A DNA stretch of 64,000 nucleotides from Schmidtea polychroa (Eukaryota): the NCBI GenBank assembly GCA_044892525.1, contig CM097885.1, positions 4,156,001-4,220,000 of the forward strand. Reading direction: 5' to 3'. The position numbers were made by a program, and so were the translations under genes. Positions 3,882-21,598 of the stretch are shown here, piece by piece. Below the pieces are notes generated by a model. That model made no database searches and was not told the origin of the DNA. It worked only from the letters and a program-made list of their open reading frames with translations. The first letter of the stretch is position 1; each line of letters begins with the position of its first letter.

Positions 3882-3946
3882 ATGTTTGCTTTCAAGAAAG
3901 ATAAGAAAGATGATGAAGGTAGTGGAAATATTTATCAATCTTTAGA
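3882..3946 (+). pseudogene. COPG: Coatomer subunit gamma, 5' part of first coding exon (interrupted by Polinton)
   Basis: ATG at 3882 reads MFAFKKDKKDDEGSGNIYQSL(D). Removing the element and one TTTAGA copy joins it in frame to KSTVLQEARVFNESPINPKKC at 21119, matching the gamma-COP N-terminus. With the insertion present, the frame stops at TAG 4038-4040. Confidence 0.9.
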
Positions 3947-4037
3947 AGTAGTAGGATTGGTCACCGCCAGACCAGGTCACCGCCAGGCCACATATACCCC
4001 CTCCCCCCCCCGGTCTGAAAAATTTTATTTTTTTTTT

Positions 4038-5432
4038 TAGAACGATGCCTAATATTTTTAGAACTATTACGTAATTTTTTTAAATTAATTGGTCCAGCGG
4101 TGACCTACTTTTTTTCATCCCAAAAATTAATGTTCCCGCCAACAGATTTTATTGGACGATACCCCATCTTAAAGCTCAGTCCAAGACCTTTCGAATGAGC
4201 TATAGGTATCTTATATATCTTTAATAGTTTTAATGTTATTAACAATTGATGACCACCATCTTTTCAACGTTAAATTATTATTATTATTCAAAATATTATT
4301 AATTGGTCCAGCGGTGACCTACTTTTTTTCATCCCAAAAATTAATGTTTCCATCATCTGAATTTATTGAACGATACCTCATCTTAAAGCTCGGTCCAAGA
4401 CCTTTCGAATGAGCTATTGAAGGTATCAACATCATTAATATTAACAAGGAGAATGATTCACCCAATGACTCATCCAACGATGCCTAATATTTTTAGAACG
4501 ATGCCTAATATTTTTAGAATGATTACGTCACATTTTTAGAACGATGCCTAATATATTTAGAACGATGCCTAATATTTTTAGAACTATTACGTAATTTTTT
4601 TAAATTAATTGGTCCAGCGGTGACCTACTTTTTTTCATCCCAAAAATTAATGTTCCCACCAACAGATTTTATTGACCGATACCTCATCTTAAAGCTCAGT
4701 CCAAGACCTTTCGAATGAGCTATAGGTATCATATATATCTTTAATAGTTTTAATGTTATTAACATTTAATGACCACCATCTTTTCAAAGTTAAATTATTA
4801 TTATTTGTCAAAATATTATTAATTGGCCCAGCGGGCTCCTACTTTTTTTCATCCCAAAGATAAATGTTCCCGCCAACATATTATATTGATCGATAGCTTA
4901 TTTTAAAGCTCTGTGCAAGAACTTTCTAATGAGATATAGATTTTTATCATACGATGACTCATCACATTTTTAGAACAAAGACAATGACTCATCATATTTT
5001 TAGAACGATGCCTAATATTTTTAGATTGATTACATCATATTTTTAGAACGATGCCTAATATTTTTAGAACGATGCCTAATATTTTTAGAATGATTACATC
5101 ATATTTTTAGAACGATGCCAAATATTTTTAGAACGATGCCTAATATTTTTAGAACTATTACGTAATCGATGTCTAATATTTTTAGAACGATGCCAAATAT
5201 TTTTAGAATGGTGCCTAATATTTTTAGAACGATTACGTCATACTTTTAGAACGATGTCTAATATTTTTAGAACGATGCCTAATATTTTTAGAACTATTAC
5301 GTAATCGATGTCTAATATTTTTAGAACGATGCCAAATATTTTTAGAATGGTGCCTAATATTTTTAGAACGATTACGTCATACTTTTAGAACGATGTCTAA
5401 TATTTTTAGAACGATGCCAAATATTTTTAGAA
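4038..5432. repeat. Subterminal tandem arrays (left): 21-bp AGAACGATGCCTAATATTTTT units and four ~200-bp units
   Basis: Units starting AATTGG(T/C)CCAGCGG near 4088, 4301, 4608 and 4821; many 21-bp copies at 4490-4590 and 5000-5430. Confidence 0.93.
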
Positions 5433-5514
5433 CTAATAATTTTTGTTTTAATTATCGAATACGTAATAATATAATTTTGTTTAAATCGTTGATTACATAT
5501 TATTATTTTCTAAG

Positions 5515-5568
<54 letters not shown>

Positions 5569-5737
5569 CATATATACTCTTAATCTATCCGACAAGATAT
5601 TCTGTCCCCCTATGGGTACTGCACACAAGGGTACTACTCACATTCAACAAGTCACAAGGGTACTGTTCACAAAATTACTGGTAAAAATATTCAAGACAAA
5701 ACTTTCTAAATTCTAAATATTATTCTTTAAATATACA

Positions 5738-6096
5738 CTAAAATTTATTAACACATTCACATTCATCATCTCCACAGTTCATAACATTTTCAACAACATG
5801 ATCTATACAATCCCTATATACACACGGTTCAGTATCCGTAAATTCCTCCATAGGTTCATCAATTTCTTGAATGCTTTCCTCATCATCTTGAGTGTTTTCT
5901 TCATCTGTTTCATCAAATTCCGAATCTTCACTCTCTGCTACCCAGTCTATATTTAATGCGTTTGTAACAGATAATATATCCGCCATTTTCACACCAGATA
6001 TTTCTGCTAATTTTTCCAATAAAAAGTTTATTATAAATTCTAAATATTAAATAATTCGATAATTAACTAATCATATTAACCTTTTTCTGTAGTCAT
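5738..6096 (-). CDS. Polinton acidic protein with Cys-rich C-terminus, spliced (left-arm copy)
   Basis: Mirror of 18953-19311. Confidence 0.75.
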
Positions 6097-6192
6097 TATT
6101 AGTATTTTAAAACTATAGTATATATTTGTTTATAGAAAATATAGAATATAAGCGAAAACAAATATGACTAAATACATTTATTAAATACAACA

Positions 6193-6612
6193 TTAAAATA
6201 ACTGTGAAAGTCTAGCAGACATAATTTTCCAAATTGGAGAATACACATCATTATTATCAACTTTATATCCTTGGATTGTAATTGTTATATACCAATTTTC
6301 GTTTTCTTTGAAACTGATTTCATCAAAGGAATCATAAAATTTTGCATATCGGTTGTTGAAAAATGCATTTTGATTGCATGATAGATTTGTATTCAACCTT
6401 TTGAAAACATCATCTATGGTTTTAATATCTAACATTGAAAGCGTGCCGGTTAAGAATTGAAATTGGGTAGGAATTAGCTTGATCGGTGACACCAATTTCA
6501 TATTGATTTCTTCTTTTAAAAAATACATTTTGTAGTTGTGGAACATTTGAACAGGTTGTACAAGTTCTGGAACTACTTTTGGTTTTTCAGTGCTTGAAAT
6601 TTTCTTGGTCAT
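6193..6612 (-). CDS. Polinton 139-aa protein, possible OB-fold ssDNA-binding protein (left-arm copy)
   Basis: Identical translation to 18437-18856. Confidence 0.7.
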   Translation of the reverse strand: MTKKISSTEKPKVVPELVQPVQMFHNYKMYFLKEEINMKLVSPIKLIPTQFQFLTGTLSMLDIKTIDDVFKRLNTNLSCNQNAFFNNRYAKFYDSFDEISFKENENWYITITIQGYKVDNNDVYSPIWKIMSARLSQLF

Positions 6613-6720
6613 TGTGAATTATGATTAAAATGAAATGGTACAGGGTTTTTATACCTATGACTATTGTTTATCATCCAATCAGATTGCAGTATGTTTTTGT
6701 TTTAATTGAATGATAAATAA

Positions 6721-7185
6721 TTAATTAAGTGATAATAAAAAATCTAAAAATTCTTTTCCTTCAATTATTGATTTAATTTCAGATATGATATTATCAACTA
6801 TACATTTGTAATCAATATTTTTTATTCCAAGAATTACTATCTTACCGCTAGCGAATATATTTACACACATAGGGTTATATTTTATATATCTCAAAGCTGG
6901 AAATAATTCTGGTTCATAAAAGCATGGTATTAATTTAGCTAATTTATTTAAATTACAAGAAAAACCTATATCGGAAGTTACGGTTATCGATTGTATTTCT
7001 AAATCATAAACATTATATTCACTAGCTTTGATTATTTCCTTACACCCCATAATTCTACATTTACCAGTTTTGAAATATATTATTGGATATTTATTACTTC
7101 TGTTGATAAGTTGTTGTGGTTTCCCTATTGGAAATACCATTTTTGATACATCAGTTTTTGCCCTGTAATTTATATTTGAAAGCAT
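6721..7185 (-). CDS. TBP-like protein (left-arm copy)
   Basis: Identical translation to 17864-18328; contains YEPELFPAL and IFASGKIVILG. Confidence 0.88.
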   Translation of the reverse strand: MLSNINYRAKTDVSKMVFPIGKPQQLINRSNKYPIIYFKTGKCRIMGCKEIIKASEYNVYDLEIQSITVTSDIGFSCNLNKLAKLIPCFYEPELFPALRYIKYNPMCVNIFASGKIVILGIKNIDYKCIVDNIISEIKSIIEGKEFLDFLLSLN

Positions 7186-7289
7186 TTTAATGAAATAATT
7201 TTAAAAACTTTGATATATATAGGTATTTAAAAACAGAGTTCATTTAAATTATCAATATAAACAATAATTATATAGTTTAAATTTAAAAA

Positions 7290-7928
7290 ATGGAATTACG
7301 AAATGATGCAGTATACCAAATCGTTGGTCCAAGTGGTAGCGGGAAAACTTTATTTGTTTGTAAATTACTAAAATCAAATTTGTTTAAAACAAAATTCAAC
7401 AATATTTATTGGCATAGGGGCGCCGACGAAGAACACGGATTGACGCAATCAAGTTTCTGTCAGTTGAAAAACATGAAAATAGTAAAGGGCTTTGATAAAA
7501 ACTGGTTAAGTCGTTTGAAGAAAGATGATGTCATCATTATCGATGATTTGTATCAAGAAGCCAATAAAGAAAAGGACTTTAATAATTTATTCACAAAACT
7601 CAGCAGACATGTTGGTGTAACAGTTATTTTCATAACACAAAATCTATTTCATCAAGGTGGTGCACATCGAACACGTAATTTAAATGTACAATATTTAGTT
7701 ATTTTCAAGAATCCTAGAGATGCAACTGTCATTGATTTTCTTGGACGACAAGCATACCCTAATAACCGTAATTTTCTTATCAGTGCATTTCAAGATGCCA
7801 CGAAAATACCGCATGGGTATATATTTCTCGATTTCACACAACAATGCCCTGATGATATACGCGTAAAAACAGATATTTTCAACCCAAAAGGTGCCATGGT
7901 ATATAAACAAAGTTCAAAACAAAGTTGA
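7290..7928 (+). CDS. A32/FtsK-like packaging ATPase (left-arm copy)
   Basis: Walker A GPSGSGKT, Walker B IIIDDL, SRH and ITQNLF motifs; one L/S difference from the right copy. Confidence 0.95.
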   Translation: MELRNDAVYQIVGPSGSGKTLFVCKLLKSNLFKTKFNNIYWHRGADEEHGLTQSSFCQLKNMKIVKGFDKNWLSRLKKDDVIIIDDLYQEANKEKDFNNLFTKLSRHVGVTVIFITQNLFHQGGAHRTRNLNVQYLVIFKNPRDATVIDFLGRQAYPNNRNFLISAFQDATKIPHGYIFLDFTQQCPDDIRVKTDIFNPKGAMVYKQSSKQS

Positions 7929-7941
7929 AAACATATAAATC

Positions 7942-8319
7942 ATGTTTTCAAAAACAAGGATATCGGGTAAAAAACAACCAAAAGTTCCACCAACAACTAG
8001 TTATACTCCATCTAAAGAACTTATTACAGAAAATTTTCCTGCAATGAATCTTATTTCGAAAAATCCTAAACCTAAAAGTAAAACCACTAAGAAAGTAAAA
8101 GTTGTTAAAAATCATCGGAGTTTCCCGTTTTTCAATACATTGTTAAAGGCACCAAGTATGAAAAGAAACAGTATTTTGCAATCATTTCCAAATTATGTTG
8201 TCGATGATTTACTCGATATTATACTTAAAGTAGTCAAAGGCAAGATTAAAATCAGTAAATCTAAAAAGCAATTATTGAGTAAACATAGGAAACCTTTGCT
8301 ATCATTAGTAAATAATTAG
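7942..8319 (+). pseudogene. Truncated copy of the 162-aa basic core-like protein
   Basis: First 125 aa of 16619-17107, ending at the arm boundary; lacks the QQGGF C-terminus. Confidence 0.9.
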
Positions 8320-10452
8320 AATCACGAAAGGCCCGCTCTTCAGCGAAAGACAAGGTTTGCATGGGCTTTTTCCCATTAATTTCGTAATATGGCAGGACAA
8401 TTGTCATAGCAATTTCCTCCACCTTACGCAAGAAAGATAAGATGCAATCATCCCCAACAAACTCATAATAAAATTTGGAGTTATTATAATTATTTATTAA
8501 TAATAAACCTGCTGTTATTGGCAAATGCTTTTGATAGTGTATTATATCCCCCGGTAAAATTGATTCAAAGTCAGCATATATCACGAATGGCGGGGTTATG
8601 GTTTTCGCATAATTTTGAAAAATTAAATTTTTCTCTTTAGGTAGGGTATATAAAGTAGTACCTATCTGGTTTTTAATGCATAAGGCAACGTGAATATCAA
8701 ATGCATTTTTATGTCTAAATCCGTTAAGACAATGGGGGCACCAGTTTACACAAATTTGAACACTACAAGAGCTACTACGGTGCGAGTTCATTAATTTTTG
8801 CAAATTGAAAACTGCGGTATAATGGAAATTATCTCCGTCTTCCAATAAAAGTAAGTATAAGGGTTCACCACCTATAACCTTAGATCGGTGAATTATATCT
8901 AATTGAGGATGATGTGGAATATAATTATCGTCAACTATATTTTCAAAAGGCTTAGCAGGGGTCGTTCTATAAGTTAAAACATTTATTGCTAAATTTAAAT
9001 CCTTATTTTTCATCTCGAATTTAGGAATATCACATAGTTTCATTGGACAGTCGGAAATGGGGTCAAAATTTAACTCGTCAAGATAATTTTGATAGGAACT
9101 AACACGGTTCCTATGACTATGTACGACATTACGTTTTAAAAGTGCTAAAATACTATATATAAAGCACATATCATCGGTGTTTTTAACATTTACTATTGCA
9201 TTTTTAGATTTTAAAGATGATGGGGTGGGGATGTAACTATGTCCAGCTAGCCTATTCATATGTGTAAATTTTGTTAATATAAAATCTATTTCTTTGATTT
9301 TAACAACCCGCCATCCACTACCCAAATATGTGAATTTTTCTATTTTATTATTTAATTTGTGAACCCCCTCACTTAGAAAACTATCTGAAAAAGCCTCTGC
9401 CCTATTCGAGAAGAAATTATCTTTAATTTCACCATCTTTTTCAAATTGAATCAATACAGAGAATTGTATTTTCACCGACCCCATTCTGTTTATTTCATGT
9501 TTTAACTTATTAACGATTTTATCGGTTATGGATATTTGAACGATGTTATCCTTTTCTACATTAAATCTTAGATTCTTTCGAACCCCCTTAAAATCAATTT
9601 CGATTTCAGGTTCATCGTCAATATCGACTGAACCGCCTACTTGAATATTATTAACCACAGTTATTTGTTCTAATTTATTAATTTTAGAGGGAGCATCAGA
9701 CCCAATACTAACAGCAGGTCTTTTTAAATTATTATTTACATTAATAACATTATTAATTAGAGGTTTTGTAATATTATTTACATGTTTTGTATTAGTTTTA
9801 ATTACAGGTTTTGTAATATTATTTACAGGTTTTGTATTATTTACATTAGTTTTAATTATAGGTTTTGCAGTATTTCGTAGTTTGTTAAATAAATCCTTTT
9901 TATTTAAAGAGAACTGATTTAAATGGGATTTATGTATACTGTAAAACTCTAAATATTTAATTCTATGGGAAGTCTCGCATATTGGACATATATAGTACTT
10001 GATGCCATAAAATTTACGACCATAATATTTTTTCATCACTTTGTGACATAAATTTGAGTGACCAGTTGAAGCCTGGCAGTAATGTGGATAAAATTTGCCT
10101 GTTAATTATATTTATCAATTAATATTAATCATGAAATTAATATATCATTTATAGTTCTTTTATCATTTAGTTCTTATAAGGATTTTACAATTATTGATAT
10201 ATGTTTCATTTAAATACAATATAAAAATGAAATAAATATTAATAATTGTAAAATATTAATAAAGTCTTGTAAACTATAATAGGGATTTTATTATTATTAT
10301 TATTATTGTTTCTGTAGTTACATGCTCACTGTAACCTACATGTTTATATAATAAGAGTCTTTAGTTGCATGCTAACTAAACATATTAAATTATTAAAATA
10401 ATATTATAAAGAGAGTATATGTATAGAATAAAAATATTAGTATTATTATTAT

Positions 10453-10990
10453 TGATGTAGCTGCATGCTCAAAGATTGTAATTATTGCATAATAAATAGT
10501 TTGATGCAGCTGCATGCAGACTACATTTAATAAAGGGTATTTATTACGTAATAAATAGTTGATGTAGCCGCATGCAGACTACATTTAAAGATTGTATTTA
10601 TTACGTAATAAATAGTTTGATGCAGCTGCATGCAGACTACATTTAAAGATTGTATTTATTACGTAATAAATAGTTTGATGCAGCTGCATGCAGACTACAT
10701 TTAATAAAGGGTATTTATTATGTAATAAATATTTGATGCAGCTGACTGCTGACTACATTTATTGGGGCAATCATAATAAAAGAGATATGTAGCTGCATGC
10801 TGACTGCAGACTACATTTATTGGGGCAATCATAATAAAAGAGATATGTAGCTGCATGCTCACTGCAGACTACATTTATTGGGGCAATCATAATAAAAGAG
10901 ATATGTAGCTGCATGCTCACTGCAGACTACATTTATTGGGGCAATCATAATAAAAGAGATATGTAGCTGCATGCTCACTGCAGACTACAA
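10453..10990. repeat. Two adjacent ~58-bp tandem arrays with palindromes
   Basis: About 5 units with ATGCAGCTGCAT and TATTTATTACGTAATAAATA, then 4 units of GACTACATTTATTGGGGCAATCATAATAAAAGAGATATGTAGCTGCATGCTCACTGCA. Confidence 0.93.
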
Positions 10991-11015
10991 GATATATTTT
11001 TATTACTATTTTTAA

Positions 11016-11052
<37 letters not shown>

Positions 11053-11125
11053 TTAACTAATGTAGTTGCTCATTGCAAACTACAAGGAATATTTTAAAAC
11101 TATTGTTTCTTAAATACTTTTTAAA

Positions 11126-11290
11126 CATTTTCTTCATCATAATATTTTCATCATTTTCTTCATCATAATATTTTCATCATTTTCTTCATCATAATATTTT
11201 CATCATTTTCTTCATCATAATATTTTCATCATTTTCTTCATCATCATAATATTTTCATCATTTTCTTCATCATCATAATATTTTCATCAT
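11126..11290. repeat. 26/29-bp tandem repeat, 6 copies
   Basis: CATTTTCTTCATCATAATATTTTCAT x4, then 2 copies with an extra CAT. Confidence 0.92.
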
Positions 11291-12067
11291 TTAGTCAACA
11301 TAACATTTTCAATTTCATTATAATATTTTCTTCATTTTCATAATAAGTTTTTATAAATAAGTTTTTAAAGAAAATGTTTAAAAAGTATTTAAGAAATTTA
11401 CAAGGTTTTTAAAAAAAAATAAATATATAAAAATAAATAAATACTAACATCGTGATTCCATGTCGGAATCTGATTCATTATCAGCAACCTCCTCAATAGA
11501 AGTGAGGGCATTATCCGCATTAACAAGCTCCTCGATTGTATTATCCACATAATTCAGCTCATCGATAGAAGTCAGTGCATTATTCATCTCCTCAATAGAA
11601 TCATTATTAATTGGAACATCGATTTCAGCGTCCATGTCAACATTAAACACTAAAATGATTTTTAAAAAATAATATACTAAAATAAAATAAATTTACTTTG
11701 TTCATTAAAAACATTGTTTTGCCTAACAAATAAGGCATCATTATCCGGGGCATCATTTTGCCCAATAAACACGACATCATCATCGTCGCTAATTATAATA
11801 GGTTCTAAATAAAATAATAATTTCATAAAAATTAAAATATTTAAATTTACCGAAAATCCTATCAACATTCAAAATTGAATCATCTTCAGTCACTTGGTAC
11901 CATAAATTCTCTAAAATAATAAATAAAAATAATAATAATAATAACTAAATAATTTACCATTTTCACCCATCAACATTGCATTCAAAATTTTGTGTAAATC
12001 AGCGTCCATTTTAATTTAAAATTTGTAAATTTAAGAATAATTATGACAAATTTTAGAATTGTCAATG

Positions 12068-12150
12068 TTTATATAGAACAGGAATATTTCCATGTCTCAA
12101 CCAATCAGAATTAAGACACATTCCTGAATACTTTTCCTCTATCAGCCAAT
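12068..12150 (-). promoter_or_regulatory. Putative Pol II promoter of spliced pPolB (TATA plus two CCAAT boxes)
   Basis: TATATAAA on the minus strand at 12075-12068, ~60 nt upstream of ATG 12009; CCAATCA at ~12101 and ~12146. Confidence 0.55.
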
Positions 12151-12239
12151 CAAATGGTAGCAAATGGGATTGCATATCTTTGTGCATGCACAATGTTTGT
12201 GTAGTTAGATAATAATATTTTTCAAAATAAATTTAATTA

Positions 12240-12331
12240 AAAATAATAATATTAATAATAATAATAATAATAATATTAATAATAATAATAATAATGATAT
12301 TAATAATAATAATAATATTAATAATAATAAT

Positions 12332-12389
<58 letters not shown>

Positions 12390-12450
12390 TAATAATAATA
12401 TTAATAATAATAATAATAATAATAAAATAATAATAATAATAATAAAATAA

Positions 12451-12481
<31 letters not shown>

Positions 12482-12490
12482 AACAACAAC
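12240..12490. repeat. (AAT)n microsatellite
   Basis: Imperfect AAT tract between the protease gene and the PolB promoter. Confidence 0.95.
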
Positions 12491-12511
12491 AAAGGATACA
12501 AAATACATTTA

Positions 12512-12924
12512 TTAATCATCAAATTTTTTATACAACAACCAAGCTAAACAATGTTGACCGCATGTTTGTGTCAAGGGATTTTGAAACATTGTTTTATTAT
12601 ATACAATAGGTTTCCCCATTGTTTGTAGTTTTGATACCAACAAAGCAGGGTAATAGAAACCCATAGGATCGAACACGAATATATTACTAGGTTTCACATA
12701 TATAGCAATCCAATGTTCTCCACCAAGATGAGACGATTGAGTATTGACGATTATGGCTTGATTATTGCTCAAATATGGGATTTTATCGAGAGGAAAAACT
12801 CCTACAAATTCATTTCCCAATATCTGTTTTTTCAATTCTATTGACCTGAACAGAACTACTTTAATAAATTAAACAGTATTGAAAAACTTACTCCATGACA
12901 ACTTTTTGGTGTTTCTGTATACAT
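12512..12924 (-). CDS. Adenain-like cysteine protease (N-terminus uncertain)
   Basis: FVGVFP, GEHWIA, FDPMG and QTCGQHC motifs in 12835-12512. ATG 12924 abuts the capsid stop and is followed by a GTAAGT donor at 12891, but the join needs a 1-nt frame correction. Confidence 0.9.
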
Positions 12925-14148
12925 TTATACTAGCACGGTTCTATTTGCAGTAATTTGAACTTCATTTTCAAATACTCCATATATTATAACATGTACTGGT
13001 TCAGTAATGGCCTTTGCAAACTTTATATCCAGTCGTAAATTCCCGTTTTGTGGTAATTGACTCTGATTTAAATCAAAATCAGGGGCTAAAACAAATGTGA
13101 AAAATGGATATTTGATTTTAAATTCTTCAAGAGTTATTCCGCAATTCAAATTTTTATCTAAATAACCCAGATTTCTAACAATACTCTGCATATATGTCGC
13201 ACAGTAATTATCATTCTCGAAATCTTGAGTATATGTTTCTCTATAATCAGTATTTTTCGATAAAGTCAATGAAGTAACACCAAAATTTTTGAAAATTGAG
13301 CTGGAAGCAGTATACGATCCATTATATTGCGTTTCACTTTGAAATGTTACCAGAATAAAATTAGGCATTCTTCTGTCACCAAATATTTGTTCTTTATAGA
13401 ATGATGAAGCACCTTTAGCAATAGCAAATTGTACAATTTCCTTTGTTTTTAAAGGATAAATTGCATGTTTTGAATTAAGCCCCAATTGATGACCAGCTAA
13501 TACTGACGGGTCTACTCGAACTCTTCTCACCAATAATTTTGCGTCAACTAATTGACATATTGGTGCACCAGTTGCACTAGTAAGAGACAATGCAGAATCA
13601 GATCTTTTCAGTCTAATATGTATATTAACTCCCGGTAGTAAATATTTCGGTTGATCCATAAAATCAAGTTGTAATGATGAGCACATAGTGAATACTTTTG
13701 AACCTTTAACCCACTTTTTTCTTTCATCATCTGCTGCTGCATAACCCATAGGTGTAAGACAGGTATTTTTAGTATCTGAATTGTAATTTAAAATAGTTTC
13801 TATCAAAGCCTTGTGAATGAATGTATTATTTCCACCCTCAATCTTGATATTATTAAATCCCAACACTGCATCTTTAAACAGAGTATGAAACATGAAATTG
13901 TTTGGTAATACATCCGCATTGGCATCCAAAACCTTTCTATCTTTATCTACAACCTTGATCTGAACAGTCAATAAAGTATCGTTCAAATCTAAATATTCAG
14001 TTTGCGAACCATTAATATAAAACTCGATATCATTTCTACTATCAGTAATTGAATTCATAGGAAAAACTTCCTCAAAGGCACCAAATTCTATTACTGCCTG
14101 GGGCGACGGTCTATCAAATATACATAATTCGGATTTACCACAAATCAT
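12925..14148 (-). CDS. Major capsid protein (double jelly-roll, PY/hexon-like)
   Basis: 407 aa; KSELCIF N-terminus, YLDLNDTLL, QPKYLLPGV and GNLRLDIKF motifs of Polinton major capsid proteins; position next to the protease. Confidence 0.92.
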   Translation of the reverse strand: MICGKSELCIFDRPSPQAVIEFGAFEEVFPMNSITDSRNDIEFYINGSQTEYLDLNDTLLTVQIKVVDKDRKVLDANADVLPNNFMFHTLFKDAVLGFNNIKIEGGNNTFIHKALIETILNYNSDTKNTCLTPMGYAAADDERKKWVKGSKVFTMCSSLQLDFMDQPKYLLPGVNIHIRLKRSDSALSLTSATGAPICQLVDAKLLVRRVRVDPSVLAGHQLGLNSKHAIYPLKTKEIVQFAIAKGASSFYKEQIFGDRRMPNFILVTFQSETQYNGSYTASSSIFKNFGVTSLTLSKNTDYRETYTQDFENDNYCATYMQSIVRNLGYLDKNLNCGITLEEFKIKYPFFTFVLAPDFDLNQSQLPQNGNLRLDIKFAKAITEPVHVIIYGVFENEVQITANRTVLV

Positions 14149-14506
14149 TTTGCAAATATAGTTCCATGTCCTTTCATTCGTTTGTTTATACGCGATATTC
14201 CATGCCCTTTACGTTTTGGAGCTGGGACTGGAGGTGTATTTTTTGAAACATACCAGCAACTCCAGGTAGAACCTTCCCTAACTCAGCTAAAGCATTTGTT
14301 TTTAGGGATGGTAATATTTTCTGTTCATTCATAATCACATCTTTTGCAGTTTTCATGCCAAAACTACCAATACGTTTAAGAATGGGAAGTGCAAATCTCC
14401 CTATTGTTTTTAACCAACCTGATCCATACTGTTTACCAATAAAATATGGTAATTCACCACCAGATTGGCTGTCACTATACATACTAATAATATCGGAATT
14501 AGCCAT
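14145..14506 (-). CDS. Small virion core/pVI-like protein, probable 1-nt frameshift near 14240
   Basis: QSGG..YFIG..QYGSG followed by an amphipathic basic helix. One extra A in the A6 run gives a basic tail (KRKGHGISRINKRMKGHGTIFAK*) whose TGA overlaps the capsid ATG. Confidence 0.75.
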
Positions 14507-15515
14507 CTACTTTACGAAAATGTAGTGTCAAATGAGTTTTTGAGTCTTTTGGGAAGTTTATAAGTTTTCCACTATCGTCACGAATATTTATTTCTATATT
14601 GTTTATACATGAGCTTGAAATTGGTAAATACATGGGATTATCTATATTTATATTGACAACTTCATCATGTTCATATTTTCCAATCCACACCGATTTCAAT
14701 AGAGGAACACTGGAATCACCAACTATTATAGGCTCAATAATATTAGTATATATGAACATTTGTTGATGATGTTCAAGTATTCTTGGTTTACGTATACCAG
14801 CCGATTTTTCCCGATATTGCTGCTTCTCTAATCCAAGTGTATTTGTCAAATTTTTATCAAATGTAACTTCGCAAATGTCATCATTCAAACTGAAGGTAAA
14901 TAACAAATCTTTCACAATATCCAAACTTTTAAATATGTGTGAACAATTATACTTTAAATATTTAAGTAACACATCAAGTTTATCAATATATAATTCGTCA
15001 GCGAAGGTGAATGATTCTTCAACTTCATTATTATACGACACTGAAATTTTGATTTCTTCTCTCATTACACTGTTTGCTTCAAATAGATCAAAGCGTAATA
15101 AATATTCTGTTTCCATAACTTCATTTTTCAACTTATTGCAACCCATTCGTCTGGCATCTTCAATATATTCGAATGTTATTGTAAATGGTTTAAAATTACA
15201 ACTGATATTTAATCCATCCTTGTAAAACATAGTGCAATGCTGATCTAATATTTGATTCGGAATATGATATGTTTTATCATAATTACTGATAATAAAGATA
15301 CCACTACATGTTTTCATAGCATTCCTTTTGAAATCAATCTTACATTGACTATAAAATGGGAATGTATTGTACACGAATGTAAAATCTTGCAGTGCAACTT
15401 CCCAGTCACCATTTAAAGAAATCGGATTCTGGAGATTGACCATGAATTTACTGGCTTGATTATCTGGATGAATAAGCGGGCAACTATTGCTTGGTAAAAT
15501 AGTATAAAAATTCAC
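14499..15515 (-). CDS. Minor capsid protein (single jelly-roll, PX/penton-like)
   Basis: FYTILPSNS, LNGDWEVAL, IVGDSSVPLL and LTLHFRK motifs. The expected start is GTG at 15515, overlapping the integrase TGA. Confidence 0.9.
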   Translation of the reverse strand: MNFYTILPSNSCPLIHPDNQASKFMVNLQNPISLNGDWEVALQDFTFVYNTFPFYSQCKIDFKRNAMKTCSGIFIISNYDKTYHIPNQILDQHCTMFYKDGLNISCNFKPFTITFEYIEDARRMGCNKLKNEVMETEYLLRFDLFEANSVMREEIKISVSYNNEVEESFTFADELYIDKLDVLLKYLKYNCSHIFKSLDIVKDLLFTFSLNDDICEVTFDKNLTNTLGLEKQQYREKSAGIRKPRILEHHQQMFIYTNIIEPIIVGDSSVPLLKSVWIGKYEHDEVVNINIDNPMYLPISSSCINNIEINIRDDSGKLINFPKDSKTHLTLHFRKVDG

Positions 15516-16557
15516 TTTACTAGATCCTTTTCTGATATCCATGATGGGATTTGATAACCATGCCATTTGACATAGTATTGTTTATCCTTGCCTTTATTTT
15601 TAGTTTTCAAAATCTTCTGAATTCTAAATACTTTTGGGGGAGGAATAACTTGTAATTTTCCTTGTACAATATTGTTATCATTGTCTTTGATGACATACAT
15701 TACAGGATTCTGTTTAGTATTTATTTTTGAAATTACAAAGACTTCATCACTCCAATTCGTATCAAAATTTTTAATAAATGGTGATGCACTAATTTTACTA
15801 AAATTTTACTAATTTTTACTAAAACTTTATATTTCGGTTTTGTAATTTTTTCAGGTTTTTTAGAATAGATTGTTTTTGACGTGATATCAATCGGCCTTAA
15901 TCCATTCAGTCCTTGATGTGATGAGTGATTATAACTGGTTATTATTTTTGGTAAAACCGATACCCATTTTTTATTACCTTGATGCACGAATAATTTCTTT
16001 AATCTATCTCTCAAAGTTCGGTTAAATCTTTCAACATGAGCAGCTTTGTATTGAGAATGTACTGAGTAATGGTTTATTTTCAATTTATTGAGGATTTGCT
16101 TGACTTTACTGTTGTAGAATTCTTTACCTAAAATAATAATAATAATAATAAAAATAATAATATTAATACCTAAATCAGTTTGCAAGTTTTTAGGATGTCC
16201 ATCTTTAAATAAATGATTAACAGCTTTGGACATTTCATCTGCAGATTTTGCCTTGACGGGTATTGCTCGGGCAAACCGACTGAATACATCAATACATGTT
16301 AAAATATATTTATACCCATTGTTAATTTTCGAATAGGGTATCATCTCCATCAAATCCATTTGCCATAAATCATTTATTCCATATGTTTTATATGCTCTTG
16401 TTGGGAATCGTTTCTGCATTGGTTTGTTCAAACTGTACGCATGCTGGTCTGATAACCACTTCTGAGTTTCCTTTTTCGAATTCGGAACTCTTTTCCTTAA
16501 TTTTGCCACTCCACCGAAACCGGCTTCGTCTTCTGGGTTCGTCCAAATCTTCTCCAT
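15512..16557 (-). pseudogene. Retroviral-like (rve) integrase with C-terminal chromodomain; 42-nt intron 16169-16128; frameshift near 15790-15825
   Basis: WQMDL, CIDVFSRF, QTDLG|KEF and VERFNRTL catalytic motifs. The C-terminus (NWSDEVF..YYVKWHGY..SWI) lies in another frame. Confidence 0.92.
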
Positions 16558-16615
16558 TACAACAAGAAGATTTAATATTAAATTTAATGTCTGGTAATGA
16601 AGGATTAGCACCCAT
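16388..16615 (-). CDS. Small overprinted ORF with N-myristoylation motif
   Basis: MGANPS (MGxxxS) then SSCC; ATG 4 nt after the upstream stop; overlaps the integrase in another frame. Confidence 0.5.
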   Translation of the reverse strand: MGANPSLPDIKFNIKSSCCNGEDLDEPRRRSRFRWSGKIKEKSSEFEKGNSEVVIRPACVQFEQTNAETIPNKSI

Positions 16616-16618
16616 TGT

Positions 16619-17107
16619 TTATGATCGACTTCCTATTATTCCACCTAATAATGATATTGCTAAAGGTATCAATGCACCGATAAATCCCCCTTGTTGTTTA
16701 TATATAATTTTTCTCATTTGTTGACGATTTTTATTATTTACTAATGATAGCAAAGGTTTCCTATGTTTACTCAATAATTGCTTTTTAGATTTACTGATTT
16801 TAATCTTGCCTTTGACTACTTTAAGTATAATATCGAGTAAATCATCGACAACATAATTTGGAAAAGATTGCAAAATACTGTTTCTTTTCATACTTGGTGC
16901 CTTTAACAATGTATTGAAAAACGGGAAACTCCGATGATTTTTAACAACTTTTACTTTCTTAGTGGTTTTACTTTTAGGTTTAGGATTTTTCGAAATAAGA
17001 TTCATTGCAGGAAAATTTTCTGTAATAAGTTCTTTAGATGGAGTATAACTAGTTGTTGGTGGAACTTTTGGTTGTTTTTTACCCGATATCCTTGTTTTTG
17101 AAAACAT
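16619..17107 (-). CDS. Basic core-like protein with adenain-type GG|F motif (adenovirus pX-like C-terminus)
   Basis: Lys-rich; ends QQGGFIGALIPLAISLLGGII. Confidence 0.8.
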   Translation of the reverse strand: MFSKTRISGKKQPKVPPTTSYTPSKELITENFPAMNLISKNPKPKSKTTKKVKVVKNHRSFPFFNTLLKAPSMKRNSILQSFPNYVVDDLLDIILKVVKGKIKISKSKKQLLSKHRKPLLSLVNNKNRQQMRKIIYKQQGGFIGALIPLAISLLGGIIGSRS

Positions 17108-17120
17108 GATTTATATGTTT

Positions 17121-17759
17121 TCAACTTTGTTTTGAACTTTGTTTATATACCATGGCACCTTTTGGGTTGAAAATATCTGTTTTTACGCGTATATCATCAG
17201 GGCATTGTTGTGTGAAATCGAGAAATATATACCCATGCGGTATTTTCGTGGCATCTTGAAATGCACTGATAAGAAAATTACGGTTATTAGGGTATGCTTG
17301 TCGTCCAAGAAAATCAATGACAGTTGCATCTCTAGGATTCTTGAAAATAACTAAATATTGTACATTTAAATTACGTGTTCGATGTGCACCACCTTGATGA
17401 AATAGATTTTGTGTTATGAAAATAACTGTTACACCAACATGTCTGCTGAGTTTTGTGAATAAATTATTAAAGTCCTTTTCTTTATTGGCTTCTTGATACA
17501 AATCATCGATAATGATGACATCATCTTTCTTCAAACGACTTGACCAGTTTTTATCAAAGCCCTTTACTATTTTCATGTTTTTCAACTGACAGAAACTTGA
17601 TTGCGTCAATCCGTGTTCTTCGTCGGCGCCCCTATGCCAATAAATATTGTTGAATTTTGTTTTAAACAAATTTGATTTTAGTAATTTACAAACAAATAAA
17701 GTTTTCCCGCTACCACTTGGACCAACGATTTGGTATACTGCATCATTTCGTAATTCCAT
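17121..17759 (-). CDS. A32/FtsK-like packaging ATPase
   Basis: GPSGSGKT, IIIDDL, SRH, ITQNLF and GYIFLD motifs. Confidence 0.95.
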   Translation of the reverse strand: MELRNDAVYQIVGPSGSGKTLFVCKLLKSNLFKTKFNNIYWHRGADEEHGLTQSSFCQLKNMKIVKGFDKNWSSRLKKDDVIIIDDLYQEANKEKDFNNLFTKLSRHVGVTVIFITQNLFHQGGAHRTRNLNVQYLVIFKNPRDATVIDFLGRQAYPNNRNFLISAFQDATKIPHGYIFLDFTQQCPDDIRVKTDIFNPKGAMVYKQSSKQS

Positions 17760-17863
17760 TTTTTAAATTTAAACTATATAATTATTGTTTATATTGATAA
17801 TTTAAATGAACTCTGTTTTTAAATACCTATATATATCAAAGTTTTTAAAATTATTTCATTAAA

Positions 17864-18328
17864 ATGCTTTCAAATATAAATTACAGGGCAAAAACTGATG
17901 TATCAAAAATGGTATTTCCAATAGGGAAACCACAACAACTTATCAACAGAAGTAATAAATATCCAATAATATATTTCAAAACTGGTAAATGTAGAATTAT
18001 GGGGTGTAAGGAAATAATCAAAGCTAGTGAATATAATGTTTATGATTTAGAAATACAATCGATAACCGTAACTTCCGATATAGGTTTTTCTTGTAATTTA
18101 AATAAATTAGCTAAATTAATACCATGCTTTTATGAACCAGAATTATTTCCAGCTTTGAGATATATAAAATATAACCCTATGTGTGTAAATATATTCGCTA
18201 GCGGTAAGATAGTAATTCTTGGAATAAAAAATATTGATTACAAATGTATAGTTGATAATATCATATCTGAAATTAAATCAATAATTGAAGGAAAAGAATT
18301 TTTAGATTTTTTATTATCACTTAATTAA
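17864..18328 (+). CDS. TATA-binding-protein-like protein
   Basis: Two TBP half-repeats: IIYFKTGKCRIMGCK aligns with ALIFSSGKMVCTGAK; IQSITVTSDIGFSCNL..YEPELFPAL..VNIFASGKIVILGIK aligns with IQNMVGSCDVKFPIRL..YEPELFPGL..LLIFVSGKVVLTGAK. Confidence 0.88.
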   Translation: MLSNINYRAKTDVSKMVFPIGKPQQLINRSNKYPIIYFKTGKCRIMGCKEIIKASEYNVYDLEIQSITVTSDIGFSCNLNKLAKLIPCFYEPELFPALRYIKYNPMCVNIFASGKIVILGIKNIDYKCIVDNIISEIKSIIEGKEFLDFLLSLN

Positions 18329-18369
18329 TTATTTATCATTCAATTAAAACAAAAACATACTGCAATCTG

Positions 18370-18403
18370 ATTGGATGATAAACAATAGTCATAGGTATAA
18401 AAA
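18370..18403 (+). promoter_or_regulatory. Inverted CCAAT plus TATAAAAA promoter of the 139-aa ORF
   Basis: ATTGG at 18370-18374, TATAAAAA at 18396-18403, ATG at 18437. Confidence 0.55.
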
Positions 18404-18436
18404 CCCTGTACCATTTCATTTTAATCATAATTCACA

Positions 18437-18856
18437 ATGACCAAGAAAATTTCAAGCACTGAAAAACCAAAAGTAGTTCCAGAACTTGTACAACCTGTTC
18501 AAATGTTCCACAACTACAAAATGTATTTTTTAAAAGAAGAAATCAATATGAAATTGGTGTCACCGATCAAGCTAATTCCTACCCAATTTCAATTCTTAAC
18601 CGGCACGCTTTCAATGTTAGATATTAAAACCATAGATGATGTTTTCAAAAGGTTGAATACAAATCTATCATGCAATCAAAATGCATTTTTCAACAACCGA
18701 TATGCAAAATTTTATGATTCCTTTGATGAAATCAGTTTCAAAGAAAACGAAAATTGGTATATAACAATTACAATCCAAGGATATAAAGTTGATAATAATG
18801 ATGTGTATTCTCCAATTTGGAAAATTATGTCTGCTAGACTTTCACAGTTATTTTAA
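18437..18856 (+). CDS. 139-aa protein, possible OB-fold SSB
   Basis: Clean ORF with an upstream TATA and AATAAA at ~18867; the function is inferred only from the C-terminal beta-strand pattern. Confidence 0.7.
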   Translation: MTKKISSTEKPKVVPELVQPVQMFHNYKMYFLKEEINMKLVSPIKLIPTQFQFLTGTLSMLDIKTIDDVFKRLNTNLSCNQNAFFNNRYAKFYDSFDEISFKENENWYITITIQGYKVDNNDVYSPIWKIMSARLSQLF

Positions 18857-18952
18857 TGTTGTATTTAATAAATGTATTTAGTCATATTTGTTTTCGCTTA
18901 TATTCTATATTTTCTATAAACAAATATATACTATAGTTTTAAAATACTAATA

Positions 18953-19311
18953 ATGACTACAGAAAAAGGTTAATATGATTAGTTAATTATCGAATTATTT
19001 AATATTTAGAATTTATAATAAACTTTTTATTGGAAAAATTAGCAGAAATATCTGGTGTGAAAATGGCGGATATATTATCTGTTACAAACGCATTAAATAT
19101 AGACTGGGTAGCAGAGAGTGAAGATTCGGAATTTGATGAAACAGATGAAGAAAACACTCAAGATGATGAGGAAAGCATTCAAGAAATTGATGAACCTATG
19201 GAGGAATTTACGGATACTGAACCGTGTGTATATAGGGATTGTATAGATCATGTTGTTGAAAATGTTATGAACTGTGGAGATGATGAATGTGAATGTGTTA
19301 ATAAATTTTAG
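18953..19311 (+). CDS. Acidic protein with Cys-rich C-terminus; exons 18953-18968 and 19010-19311
   Basis: ATG ACT ACA GAA AAA G|gt..41 nt..ag|AA joins in frame to FIINFLLEKLAEISG; TATAAA at ~18915. Confidence 0.75.
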
Positions 19312-19480
19312 TGTATATTTAAAGAATAATATTTAGAATTTAGAAAGTTTTGTCTTGAATATTTTTACCAGTAATTTTGTGAACAGTACCCTTGTGACTT
19401 GTTGAATGTGAGTAGTACCCTTGTGTGCAGTACCCATAGGGGGACAGAATATCTTGTCGGATAGATTAAGAGTATATATG

Positions 19481-19546
<66 letters not shown>

Positions 19547-21111
19547 CTTAGAAAATAATAATATGTAATCAACGATTTAAACAAAATTATATTATTACGT
19601 ATTCGATAATTAAAACAAAAATTATTAGTTCTAAAAATATTTGGCATCGTTCTAAAAATATTAGACATCGTTCTAAAAGTATGACGTAATCGTTCTAAAA
19701 ATATTAGGCACCATTCTAAAAATATTTGGCATCGTTCTAAAAATATTAGACATCGATTACGTAATAGTTCTAAAAATATTAGGCATCGTTCTAAAAATAT
19801 TAGACATCGTTCTAAAAGTATGACGTAATCGTTCTAAAAATATTAGGCACCATTCTAAAAATATTTGGCATCGTTCTAAAAATATTAGACATCGATTACG
19901 TAATAGTTCTAAAAATATTAGGCATCGTTCTAAAAATATTTGGCATCGTTCTAAAAATATGACGTAATCATTCTAAAAATATTAGGCATCGTTCTAAAAA
20001 TATTAGGCATCGTTCTAAAAATATGACGTAATCAATCTAAAAATATTAGGCATCGTTCTAAAAATATGATGAGTCATTGTCTTTGTTCTAAAAATGTGAT
20101 GAGTCATCGTATGATAAAAATCTATATCTCATTAGAAAGTTCTTGCACAGAGCTTTAAAATAAGCTATCGATCAATATAATATGTTGGCGGGAACATTTA
20201 TCTTTGGGATGAAAAAAAGTAGGAGCCCGCTGGGCCAATTAATAATATTTTGACAAATAATAATAATTTAACTTTGAAAAGATGGTGGTCATTAAATGTT
20301 AATAACATTAAAACTATTAAAGATATATATGATACCTATAGCTCATTCGAAAGGTCTTGGACTGAGCTTTAAGATGAGGTATCGGTCAATAAAATCTGTT
20401 GGTGGGAACATTAATTTTTGGGATGAAAAAAAGTAGGTCACCGCTGGACCAATTAATTTAAAAAAATTACGTAATAGTTCTAAAAATATTAGGCATCGTT
20501 CTAAAAATATTAGGCATCGTTCTAAAAATGTGACGTAATCATTCTAAAAATATTAGGCATCGTTCTAAAAATATTAGGCATCGTTGGATGAGTCATTGGG
20601 TGAATCATTCTCCTTGTTAATATTAATGATGTTGATACCTTCAATAGCTCATTCGAAAGGTCTTGGACCGAGCTTTAAGATGAGGTATCGTTCAATAAAT
20701 TCAGATGATGGAAACATTAATTTTTGGGATGAAAAAAAGTAGGTCACCGCTGGACCAATTAATAATATTTTGAATAATAATAATAATTTAACGTTGAAAA
20801 GATGGTGGTCATCAATTGTTAATAACATTAAAACTATTAAAGATATATAAGATACCTATAGCTCATTCGAAAGGTCTTGGACTGAGCTTTAAGATGGGGT
20901 ATCGTCCAATAAAATCTGTTGGCGGGAACATTAATTTTTGGGATGAAAAAAAGTAGGTCACCGCTGGACCAATTAATTTAAAAAAATTACGTAATAGTTC
21001 TAAAAATATTAGGCATCGTTCTAAAAAAAAAAAAAAATTTTTCAGACCGGGGGGGAGGGGGTATATGTGGCCTGGCGGTGACCTGGTCTGGCGGTGACCA
21101 ATCCTACTACT

Positions 21112-21598
21112 TTTAGATAAGTCAACAGTACTTCAAGAGGCTCGGGTTTTTAACGAATCTCCAATTAATCCTAAAAAATGCATTGGAATCTTAACTAGAA
21201 TTCTCTATATTATATCAAGAGGTGACAAATTAAGTCGAGCTGAAGCAACTGATGCTTTTTTTGCAATGACTAAACTTTTTCAAAACAAAGATCTAAATCT
21301 TCGTCGAATGGTGTATTTAGTCATTAAAGAAATGAAATCTATTGTCGATAATGTAATGATTGTTACAAGCAGCCTGCAACGAGATGTTATTGACAAGGAC
21401 CAGGCTTTTCGAGCCCCAGCATTACGTACATTGTGTAAAATCATGGACCCTGATATGGTTCAAATGCTTGAAAGACATATTAAAGAAGGTATTGTAAATC
21501 GTAGTTCTCCTTATGCATGTGCTGCTATTGCGTCAGCGTATCATCTAATGCAAACGGCTCATGAGTTAATTAGAAAATATTCAAATGAAGCTTGTGAT
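21112..21598 (+). pseudogene. COPG: Coatomer subunit gamma, remainder of first exon
   Basis: KSTVLQEARVFNESPINPKKC..EATDAFFAMTKLFQ..LRRMVYLVIKEM..IVTSSL; GTTAGT donor at 21599. No later COPG exons were recognised in the window. Confidence 0.92.

Follow-up and report, generated by a model that had tools for sequence, protein, structure and literature searches.

A compact TBP-like gene in a Polinton/Maverick-type element of Schmidtea polychroa and a candidate promoter motif upstream of its virion genes

Elements of the Polinton, Maverick and adintovirus group are central to current ideas on the origins of eukaryotic DNA viruses, and to our knowledge very little is known about how they are transcribed. 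Here we describe a gene for a compact homologue of the TATA-binding protein (TBP), carried by a Polinton/Maverick-type element in a 64,000-nt stretch of Schmidtea polychroa DNA (contig CM097885.1, positions 4,156,001 to 4,220,000; this whole stretch is called the window, and coordinates are those of the window unless another locus is named). An earlier reading of the window (the original prediction) had taken the gene for a minimal TBP acting at the element's own promoters, or for a decoy that disturbs host transcription. The computational analysis reported below suggests, as the best overall explanation and one that we hold with about even confidence, that the element encodes its own promoter factor in this protein, one that serves a second, 'late' class of promoters.

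The TBP-like gene and its product

The gene lies head to head with that of a packaging ATPase, and an identical copy is found elsewhere in the same element:

17864..18328, plus strand: compact TBP-like gene, 154 residues, no internal stop (Pfam TBP, AlphaFold, Foldseek and hhalign)
6721..7185, minus strand: second TBP-like gene, encoding the identical 154 residues, inside the left arm of the element
17760..17863, no strand: divergent spacer between the TBP-like gene and the ATPase gene, 104 bp, AT-rich

As had been predicted, the open reading frame (ORF) on the plus strand is intact, it diverges from the ATPase gene over an AT-rich spacer of about 100 bp, and both YEPELFP and IFASGK can be read in its product. 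The plus strand of the spacer carries TATATATA at -36 of the TBP-like ATG. The predicted TBP identity is supported by both family and structure searches. Pfam PF00352 (TBP) matches the protein with 56.4 bits (cut-off 22.9; E 2.8e-15), the match being confined to a single stretch, residues 62-125, and only one repeat being detected by Pfam. An AlphaFold model built with 30 family members has a pLDDT of 94.7 and a pTM of 0.83. When compared with the PDB by Foldseek, all 44 matches at E<=0.001 were TBP chains (TMq 0.59-0.71), while matches beyond TBP chains had E>0.03 and unrelated folds; the alignments to whole TBP cores span 164-184 columns, with TMq up to 0.71. Profile alignment by hhalign to 15 canonical TBPs gave a probability of 99.5% and covered residues 13-140, leaving the first 12 residues unaligned, and the family profile picks out 35 TBP sequences of the PDB, aligning by its C-lobe part to both canonical repeats.

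Strands are present in both halves of the model, as in the two-repeat saddle sheet of TBP ('SNINY' was read as strand S1 by eye), and the C lobe has helices at residues 79-83 and 127-153. The N lobe consists of four strands, and its sole helix is four residues long (54-57). In the hhalign alignment the position of N-lobe helix H2 is a 16-residue gap; the N lobe is without both H1 and H2, the helices expected on the convex face of each repeat. Alignment of yeast TBP (chain residues 145-220) to the profile (56-130) equates E91, E93, F95 and F111 with yeast E186, E188, F190 and F207, and by hhalign F38 aligns with the second N-lobe phenylalanine. The first N-lobe phenylalanine is lost, P23 aligning there, which leaves three of the four intercalating phenylalanines (F38, F95 and F111). 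R44 and M46 align with the Val and Thr of the canonical 'GKxVxTG', which we take to be the DNA-contact residues V122 and T124 of yeast TBP. Ten positions are invariant in 30/30 aligned family members, namely E91, P92, E93, F95, F111, F38, P23, R44, M46 and N6, and these include both acidic TFIIB-contact residues of the C-terminal stirrup, E91 and E93. The residue-level claims of the original prediction thus stand: the equivalents of yeast E186, E188, F116, F190 and F207 are all found, the F99 region is degenerate, and basic helix H2 is largely missing. From the model and these alignments, we conclude that the ORF encodes a TBP homologue with a predicted saddle fold, a canonical C lobe and an N lobe that keeps its sheet but not helices H1 and H2.

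The carrier element

The TBP-like gene is part of an element with the following genes and boundaries:

3947..21111, no strand: whole composite Polinton/Maverick-type element, 17.2 kb (from the arm alignment and flanks)
3941..3946, no strand: left target-site duplication, TTTAGA (read from the flank)
21112..21117, no strand: right target-site duplication, TTTAGA (read from the sequence)
17121..17759, minus strand: packaging ATPase, A32/FtsK-type, 212 residues (Pfam Pox_A32, E 2.4e-7, 30.9 bits, cut-off 22.8)
7290-7928, plus strand: second ATPase copy
16619..17107, minus strand: ORF162, kept in relatives, no known family (Pfam scan, synteny)
15733-16557 and 15512-15700, minus strand: rve integrase core and chromodomain (Pfam rve E 2.5e-8, Chromo E 3.4e-4)
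14499..15566, minus strand: ORF355, candidate for a minor capsid or penton protein, judged only from size and position, no Pfam family (synteny in 13/81 loci)
14186..14506, minus strand: ORF106, small conserved protein (synteny)
12925..14148, minus strand: ORF407, candidate major capsid protein (MCP), no Pfam family (41-58% identity on 11/81 loci)
8261..10036, minus strand: protein-primed DNA polymerase B (PolB), N-terminal 591 residues, cut at the left-arm junction
18437..18856, plus strand: ORF139, candidate gp2.5-like OB-fold single-stranded DNA (ssDNA)-binding protein (AlphaFold pLDDT 90.4)
6193-6612, minus strand: second ORF139 copy

The termini read AGTAGTAGGATTGG... and ...CCAATCCTACTACT, and the element has the terminal inverted repeats and 6-bp target-site duplication of a Polinton. 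PolB is recognized in a sister copy, where PF03175 matches the polymerase ORF (L095:1098-3110) with E 2.3e-18; the fragment in the window, which has no Pfam family at E<=0.01, is 94% identical in nucleotide sequence to the sister PolB region. The integrase core and chromodomain are in two separate frames here and in a single 351-residue ORF in sister copy L094. Taken together, the TTTAGA duplication, the A32-like ATPase, the integrase with its rve core and chromodomain and, in the sister copy, PolB place the carrier in the Polinton/Maverick type, as originally proposed. Scans of ORFs from the window and from L025, L094 and L095 found no adenain-like cysteine protease family; several of these ORFs have no family. 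As for the capsid candidate ORF407, its Atlas neighbours are eukaryotic proteins of about 450 residues, with PF21738 (DJR-like) in 15% of one cluster, which is a lead only. The window integrase frame (15733-16557, minus strand) contains an Ile-rich low-complexity stretch (IIIFIIIIII).

Conservation of the TBP-like gene

Searching clusters of 84-270 residues gave 118 candidates, 97 of which match the family at E<=1e-3; nearly all of these are 144-160 residues long, with 33-58% identity, and PF00352 is present in all 97. In an exhaustive search 1241 representatives passed E<=1e-3, and 114 of these also passed E<=1e-10, with compact one-stretch proteins ranking first and canonical two-repeat TBPs appearing from about E 1e-11. 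The scan of IMG/VR for the family found only one distant relative, on a 44.7-kb contig. We fetched 81 loci (80 metagenomic and the one from IMG/VR) and searched them by tblastn with the window proteins. Near the TBP-like gene the ATPase was found in 26 of the 81 loci, ORF139 in 20, the integrase in 19, ORF355 in 13, the capsid candidate in 11 and PolB in six, and the ATPases that adjoin TBP-like genes on metagenomic contigs share 60-74% identity with that of the window. The full gene order is seen on six contigs; most of the remaining loci are shorter than 3 kb, too short to judge. The placement of the TBP-like gene varies by lineage: it may stand beside the ATPase gene, diverge from it, or lie downstream of the capsid gene. 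By this comparison, the linkage of gene and element is old and does not form one fixed block.

The original prediction had called for dN/dS below one, and this was obtained: by the Nei-Gojobori method the median is 0.20 (range 0.05-0.74; 48 pairs with dS 0.03-1.2). Within the S. polychroa genome, five distinct nucleotide variants of the TBP ORF show no nonsynonymous and 11 synonymous differences. Sister copy cpA is 94.8% identical to the window over 7.7 kb and 98.9% identical in the TBP ORF, where there are no nonsynonymous and five synonymous differences.

The host genome has its own TBP-family loci, the best of them 78% identical to a canonical TBP. When compared with host repeats over at least 64 residues, the window C lobe does not exceed 31% identity, higher values being confined to stretches of 32-40 residues, and with family members it reaches 64%. 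A maximum-likelihood tree built by a quick search from 122 repeat sequences (87 columns; 67 of 119 inner branches unresolved) has a branch with 95% support that parts the compact family from all seven host repeats and from 72 of the 74 rows labelled canonical; the two exceptions both come from one 164-residue protein that truly belongs to the compact family. We also considered assigning a deep origin (eukaryotic, archaeal or giant-virus TBP), for which this tree is too weak. These comparisons indicate that the TBP-like gene is a conserved gene of one Polinton/Maverick (adintovirus-like) lineage, under purifying selection.

A motif upstream of the virion genes

In the window, ATAAACAA is found on the coding strand 5' of the ATPase, ORF162, integrase, ORF355, capsid candidate and ORF139 genes. 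It lies at 17785-17792 (minus strand), inside the 104-bp spacer and at -34 of the ATPase ATG; at 17139-17146 (minus strand), upstream of ORF162; and at 14182-14189 (minus strand), about -41 of the ORF407 ATG. ORF139 has TATAAAAA at -41 of its ATG. The motif occurs 27 times in the window against 15 expected, a number reached in one of 100 shuffles, and 13 of the 27 occurrences are inside the element.

We then looked for enriched words without a prior motif, drawing on 75 loci of the metagenomic set, whose genes gave 160 unique upstream regions (-90 to -1). The most enriched 7-mer was ATAAACA, with 56 occurrences against 5.1 expected (p 5e-42), followed by TAAACAA, TATAAAC and CATAAAC. The motif is strand-specific (71 of the 160 regions in the forward direction versus five as the reverse complement), and the base before ATAAACA is T in 49% and C in 36% of sites, giving YATAAACA. 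Its distribution over genes is uneven. ATAAAC is present upstream of the ATPase in 21/22 regions, of the capsid candidate in 9/9, of the integrase in 13/16, of ORF355 in 7/9, of ORF162 in 7/10 and of ORF106 in 5/6; it is present in 1/3 for PolB, 3/19 for ORF139 and 5/66 for the TBP-like gene itself. Upstream of the ATPase its median position is -35, and 15 of 22 occurrences fall between -31 and -37. The upstream regions of the TBP-like gene have a different appearance: 31 of 66 contain TATAWAW, and many have, as judged by eye, CCAAT-like boxes together with TCATT or ATCATAATT near the start. The canonical TATA sequence is TATAAAAG, in contrast to YATAAACA.

A reading of the motif as a poly(A) or gene-end signal was considered and set aside. 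Downstream of the MCP gene, the last of the cluster, the motif is never seen (0/10), which excludes a general gene-end signal, and it is present 5' of the ATPase gene even where no co-directional gene precedes. It does lie within -20 to +20 of the stop codon for the ATPase (16/19) and for ORF162 (9/10).

One instance of the motif lies within the integrase chromodomain (window 15578-15585, minus strand; also in L019, L052 and L055). There the codon before 'KQ' specifies Asp, His or Tyr and always ends in AT; conservation of the nucleotides despite a changing amino acid hints, in four cases only, at selection on the DNA motif itself.

Proposed mechanism and alternatives

The original interpretation finds partial support: the fold, the carrier and the residue pattern agree with it, and recruitment of TFIIB or Pol II, escape from TBP regulators and a decoy role are inferred. 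In the mechanism that we propose, host machinery would transcribe the TBP-like gene from its host-type promoter (TATA, often with CCAAT-like and initiator-like motifs). The compact TBP would then bind YATAAACA some 35-40 nt 5' of the start codons of the packaging ATPase, the integrase and the capsid module, with its canonical C lobe on the 5' '(Y)ATA' half of the motif and its altered N lobe (P23, R44, M46) on the non-canonical 3' 'AACA' half. From there it could seed the Pol II pre-initiation complex via the conserved TFIIB stirrup (E91, E93). Convex surfaces of TBP are bound by TBP regulators, and a protein without N-lobe helices H1 and H2 would not offer the surfaces that the host's regulators use. 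The net effect would be an early-to-late switch, with a logic like that of the herpesvirus late-gene TBP mimic; a host-type promoter on the TBP-like gene and a private motif on the virion genes fit such a switch. Spelled out in full, as a two-stage programme run by one minimal TBP whose re-specified N lobe reads the 3' half of the private YATAAACA and which turns on the packaging, integrase and capsid genes by way of host TFIIB and Pol II, the proposal is tentative, and we would sooner doubt than accept all of its parts at once.

The orientation of the lobes and the bridge to Pol II draw on what is known of other TBPs. We place the C lobe on the 5' half of the motif because, according to passages of PMC12529657, a preference for T at the first TATA position comes from the proline of the C lobe; a literature search for a statement on which lobe binds which half of the TATA box found none. 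Acidic stirrup residues are described as critical for TFIIB in the same passages (PMC12529657), and the conservation of E91 and E93 suggests that TFIIB may still serve as the bridge to Pol II. When the compact TBP was modelled in complex with a cyclin core, that of an intronless TFIIB-like ORF from this genome, the prediction, made without alignment and without controls, scored 0.01 (mark 0.34), which speaks neither for nor against an interaction. The canonical host TFIIB frame is interrupted in this genome, and the L108 frame is BRF1-like by eye.

Several points weigh against a dedicated promoter factor for YATAAACA. The link between protein and motif is one of co-occurrence, since every locus was selected for its TBP-like gene and there is no TBP-less control. 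C rather than T precedes ATAAACA in 36% of the sites. At the ATPase/ORF162 and ORF162/integrase junctions a gene-end signal and a signal upstream of the next gene are inseparable, several instances of the motif overlap the stop codon of the preceding gene or a coding stretch for 'YKQ', and coding or gene-junction constraint could be behind part of the enrichment. Start codons were set mechanically at the first ATG. R44 and M46 are assigned to DNA-contact positions by alignment and yeast residue numbering (V122, T124), not by coordinates. The dN/dS pairs are non-independent, and the own-genome loci were picked as best protein matches, which biases their nonsynonymous count towards zero. Finally, forkhead factors have the consensus RYAAAYA, which ATAAACA fits, and a host forkhead-type factor could be what reads the motif.

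The last point leads to an alternative that we consider unlikely, although it is the strongest of those weighed: the protein would stand in for TBP in general and lack any specificity of its own. It would bind ordinary TATA boxes and raise or secure the expression of every gene of the element, for instance in cells where host TBP is in short supply or under tight control, and a forkhead-type host factor would read YATAAACA. The canonical C lobe, three of four phenylalanines and the TFIIB glutamates agree with such a role, as do the TATA-like boxes 5' of the TBP-like gene and of ORF139 and the match of ATAAACA to the forkhead consensus. However, the N-lobe positions that align with DNA contacts are changed and yet invariant in the family (P23, R44, M46 and N6), which argues for an altered but conserved specificity and not for relaxed function, and the ATPase motif keeps a fixed, core-promoter-like distance (15/22 at -31 to -37) that would be unexpected for an enhancer-type site.

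The loss of N-lobe H1 and H2, combined with retention of the TFIIB-contact residues, would also suit a decoy or host shut-off factor that occupies host TATA boxes or titrates TFIIB without full assembly, thereby dampening transcription or innate responses. We find this improbable: an element present in thousands of germline copies gains little by poisoning host transcription, and the two-class promoter pattern would be left unexplained. We give equally little credence to a purely architectural role, in which the protein binds the AT-rich terminal arrays and bends the ends of the element for protein-primed initiation or integrase action. Units of 21 bp, AT-rich and containing TAAAAATATTA, are indeed dense over the subterminal 1.4 kb, and the TBP-like gene lies on the replication-gene side of the element and adjoins the candidate ssDNA-binding ORF139 in 20/81 loci; but the strict conservation of the TFIIB-contact glutamates (30/30) is not accounted for by DNA bending. 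The last alternative, a recent and neutral acquisition of host TBP, without function and confined to this copy or genome, which the original prediction had named as a way in which it could fail, is in our view already refuted by these sequence comparisons, namely the low identity to host repeats (at most 31% over at least 64 residues, versus up to 64% within the family), the grouping of all seven host repeats with canonical TBPs beyond the 95%-support branch of the quick tree, the recurrence of the family on many independent contigs with the same adjoining genes, and the median dN/dS of 0.20.

If a dedicated promoter factor is indeed encoded here, it would provide a directly testable model of early-to-late gene control for the Polinton/adintovirus group, and of the known self-contained viral systems that recognize promoters by a TBP fold it would be the smallest. 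In addition, it would represent a natural half-site re-engineering of TBP, with one lobe canonical and the other helix-less and altered at residues aligning with DNA contacts, and a motif that is likewise half canonical. The motif and the gene could be used as annotation markers for the element lineage, and the promoter-factor pair might give a compact orthogonal expression switch.

Relation to known TBPs

The compact protein shares with cellular TBPs (eukaryotic and archaeal, PF00352) the saddle fold, YEPELFP, the intercalating phenylalanine pair of the C lobe and the TFIIB-contact glutamates. It differs in being encoded by a mobile element, in its length (154 residues versus a core of about 180), in lacking N-lobe H1/H2 and the first phenylalanine, and in the substitution of Phe, Val and Thr by the invariant P23, R44 and M46. 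TBPs of Nucleocytoviricota, including the asfarvirus B263R type, are likewise virus-encoded proteins of this fold. A viral structure library gave 20 matches at E<=0.001, the best being the TBP of Heterosigma akashiwo virus (E 1.8e-7); the viral TBP matches listed are all at least 186 residues long, and the compact TBP is shorter. Viruses with those TBPs mostly carry their own RNA polymerase, and no polymerase subunit gene was found in the element of about 14-17 kb. A poxviral TBP/TFIIB-like factor has also been reported.

A functional parallel may be the late-gene TBP mimic of beta- and gamma-herpesviruses, ORF24 of KSHV (Kaposi's sarcoma-associated herpesvirus) and BcRF1 of Epstein-Barr virus (EBV). 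According to passages of PMC12529657, this mimic reads TATTWAA late promoters, and the variant-TATA logic suggested here, with late genes marked in this way and early genes on host-type promoters, would be similar. KSHV ORF24, however, is described there as lacking the acidic TFIIB-contact residues and as binding Pol II directly, whereas the compact TBP keeps the glutamates; and ORF24 is a large, multidomain protein with five partner proteins (PMC12529657), whereas here we find a bare 154-residue TBP core, which leaves no room for an extra Pol II-binding N-terminal domain. BcRF1 is only a weak fold match to the compact TBP (E 8e-3, TMq 0.37). The compact TBP is probably not a member of the ORF24/BcRF1/UL87 family, and the likeness would be functional.

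A TBP-like gene in a midsize, Polinton-related virus genome is not new in itself, and on this point the original prediction was overstated. The legend of figure 5 in Starrett et al. (2021, Virus Evolution; PMC8502044) names 'TBP' among the genes of MELD viruses with adintovirus-like PolB, and the bioRxiv version of that work has two figure legends naming TBP. The gene named there may or may not belong to the compact family, and one supplement text of PMC8502044 contains no TBP or TATA term. In a literature search for TBP in Polintons and Mavericks, as far as the texts were available, only these legends were found, and the search gave no account of the compact architecture, of lineage-wide conservation or of two promoter classes. 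The novelty is therefore partial: a TBP gene had already been listed for related viruses, and the motif and the promoter classes are new here.

Further features of the element

ORF139 was considered as a partner of the TBP-like protein and dropped, its fold resembling viral ssDNA-binding proteins. The VIA-align Z scores of its model are 7.0 for CP312R of African swine fever virus, 6.7 for the Enc34 ssDNA-binding protein, 6.5 for T7 gp2.5 and 5.6 for baculovirus LEF-3. It has no Pfam family, and on the strength of the predicted fold it is probably the element's ssDNA-binding protein for protein-primed replication. The right arm carries in addition a small acidic ORF and subterminal arrays:

19063..19311, plus strand: ORF82, very acidic, with a Cys-rich C-terminus, no Pfam family
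5738-5986, minus strand: second ORF82 copy
19626-20067, 20477-20585 and 20979-21029, no strand: subterminal arrays of a 21-bp unit, GTTCTAAAAATATTAGGCATC (Tandem Repeats Finder), mirrored in the left arm

ORF82 could be an activator-like or DNA-mimic partner. In relatives L016, L018, L059, L062, L071 and L074 an ORF with an acidic tail ends just 5' of the TBP-like gene. The 21-bp unit is AT-rich with a TATA-like core, and its arrays occupy the subterminal 1.4 kb; they might be bound, as an array, by the TBP-like protein, by a terminal protein or by the integrase.

Inverted duplication and amplification

The window copy is built from two arms:

3947..8323, no strand: left arm, inverted duplicate of the right arm, joining the PolB gene at about 8323
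16726..21111, no strand: right arm (arm alignment)

The arms align (3943-8323 against 21115-16726) over 4.4 kb with 99.48% identity in 4393 nt, eight mismatches and three gaps, and the junction at about 8323 truncates ORF162 (125 residues in the left arm) and PolB. The window copy is thus a rearranged element. That the TBP-like ORF is present twice, as had been noted before, is correct in so far as an identical ORF lies at 6721..7185; the two are arms of one inverted duplication and not independent insertions. Further copies in the genome also have long inverted duplications, each with other breakpoints. One (L100+L101, C1 near 179.57 Mb) forms an almost perfect palindrome with its centre in the capsid gene, and at least four pairs of TBP-like genes in (-,+) orientation, 4.6-11 kb apart, occur among the 150 genome matches listed. 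A third copy is about 14 kb long, with terminal repeats at either end, and its polymerase sequence is longer by about 2.4 kb. The inverted-duplication copies look like products of snap-back or strand-switch replication, either still mobile or rearranged after insertion.

In the 781-Mb genome all 150 scored TBP-like matches are 100% identical in protein sequence. A first look gave 4137 candidates, a figure that is not a copy number. The scale of this amplification, the inverted-duplication structure and the YATAAACA motif had no place in the original prediction.

TFIIB-like genes and other repeats in the same genome

An intronless ORF of about 304 residues, whose product is a complete TFIIB-like protein with a Zn ribbon (E 1.5e-10) and a TFIIB repeat (E 1.2e-10), is present in at least 13 copies in the same genome. 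Two of them are:

L116:4575-5486, minus strand: TFIIB-like ORF
L117:4185-5096, minus strand: TFIIB-like ORF

No Polinton genes were found near the TFIIB-like ORFs in the two 10-kb stretches examined. By their sequence, these ORFs represent an expanded TFIIB paralogue family in a genome with thousands of TBP-like genes. Their tandem arrays, with members about 8-10 kb apart, lie at 38.2-39.1 Mb on C3 and at 23.8-24.2 Mb on C1. The window itself contains, outside the element, a tandem array with a 148-bp period at 44787-45826, for which six 300-nt copies are listed.

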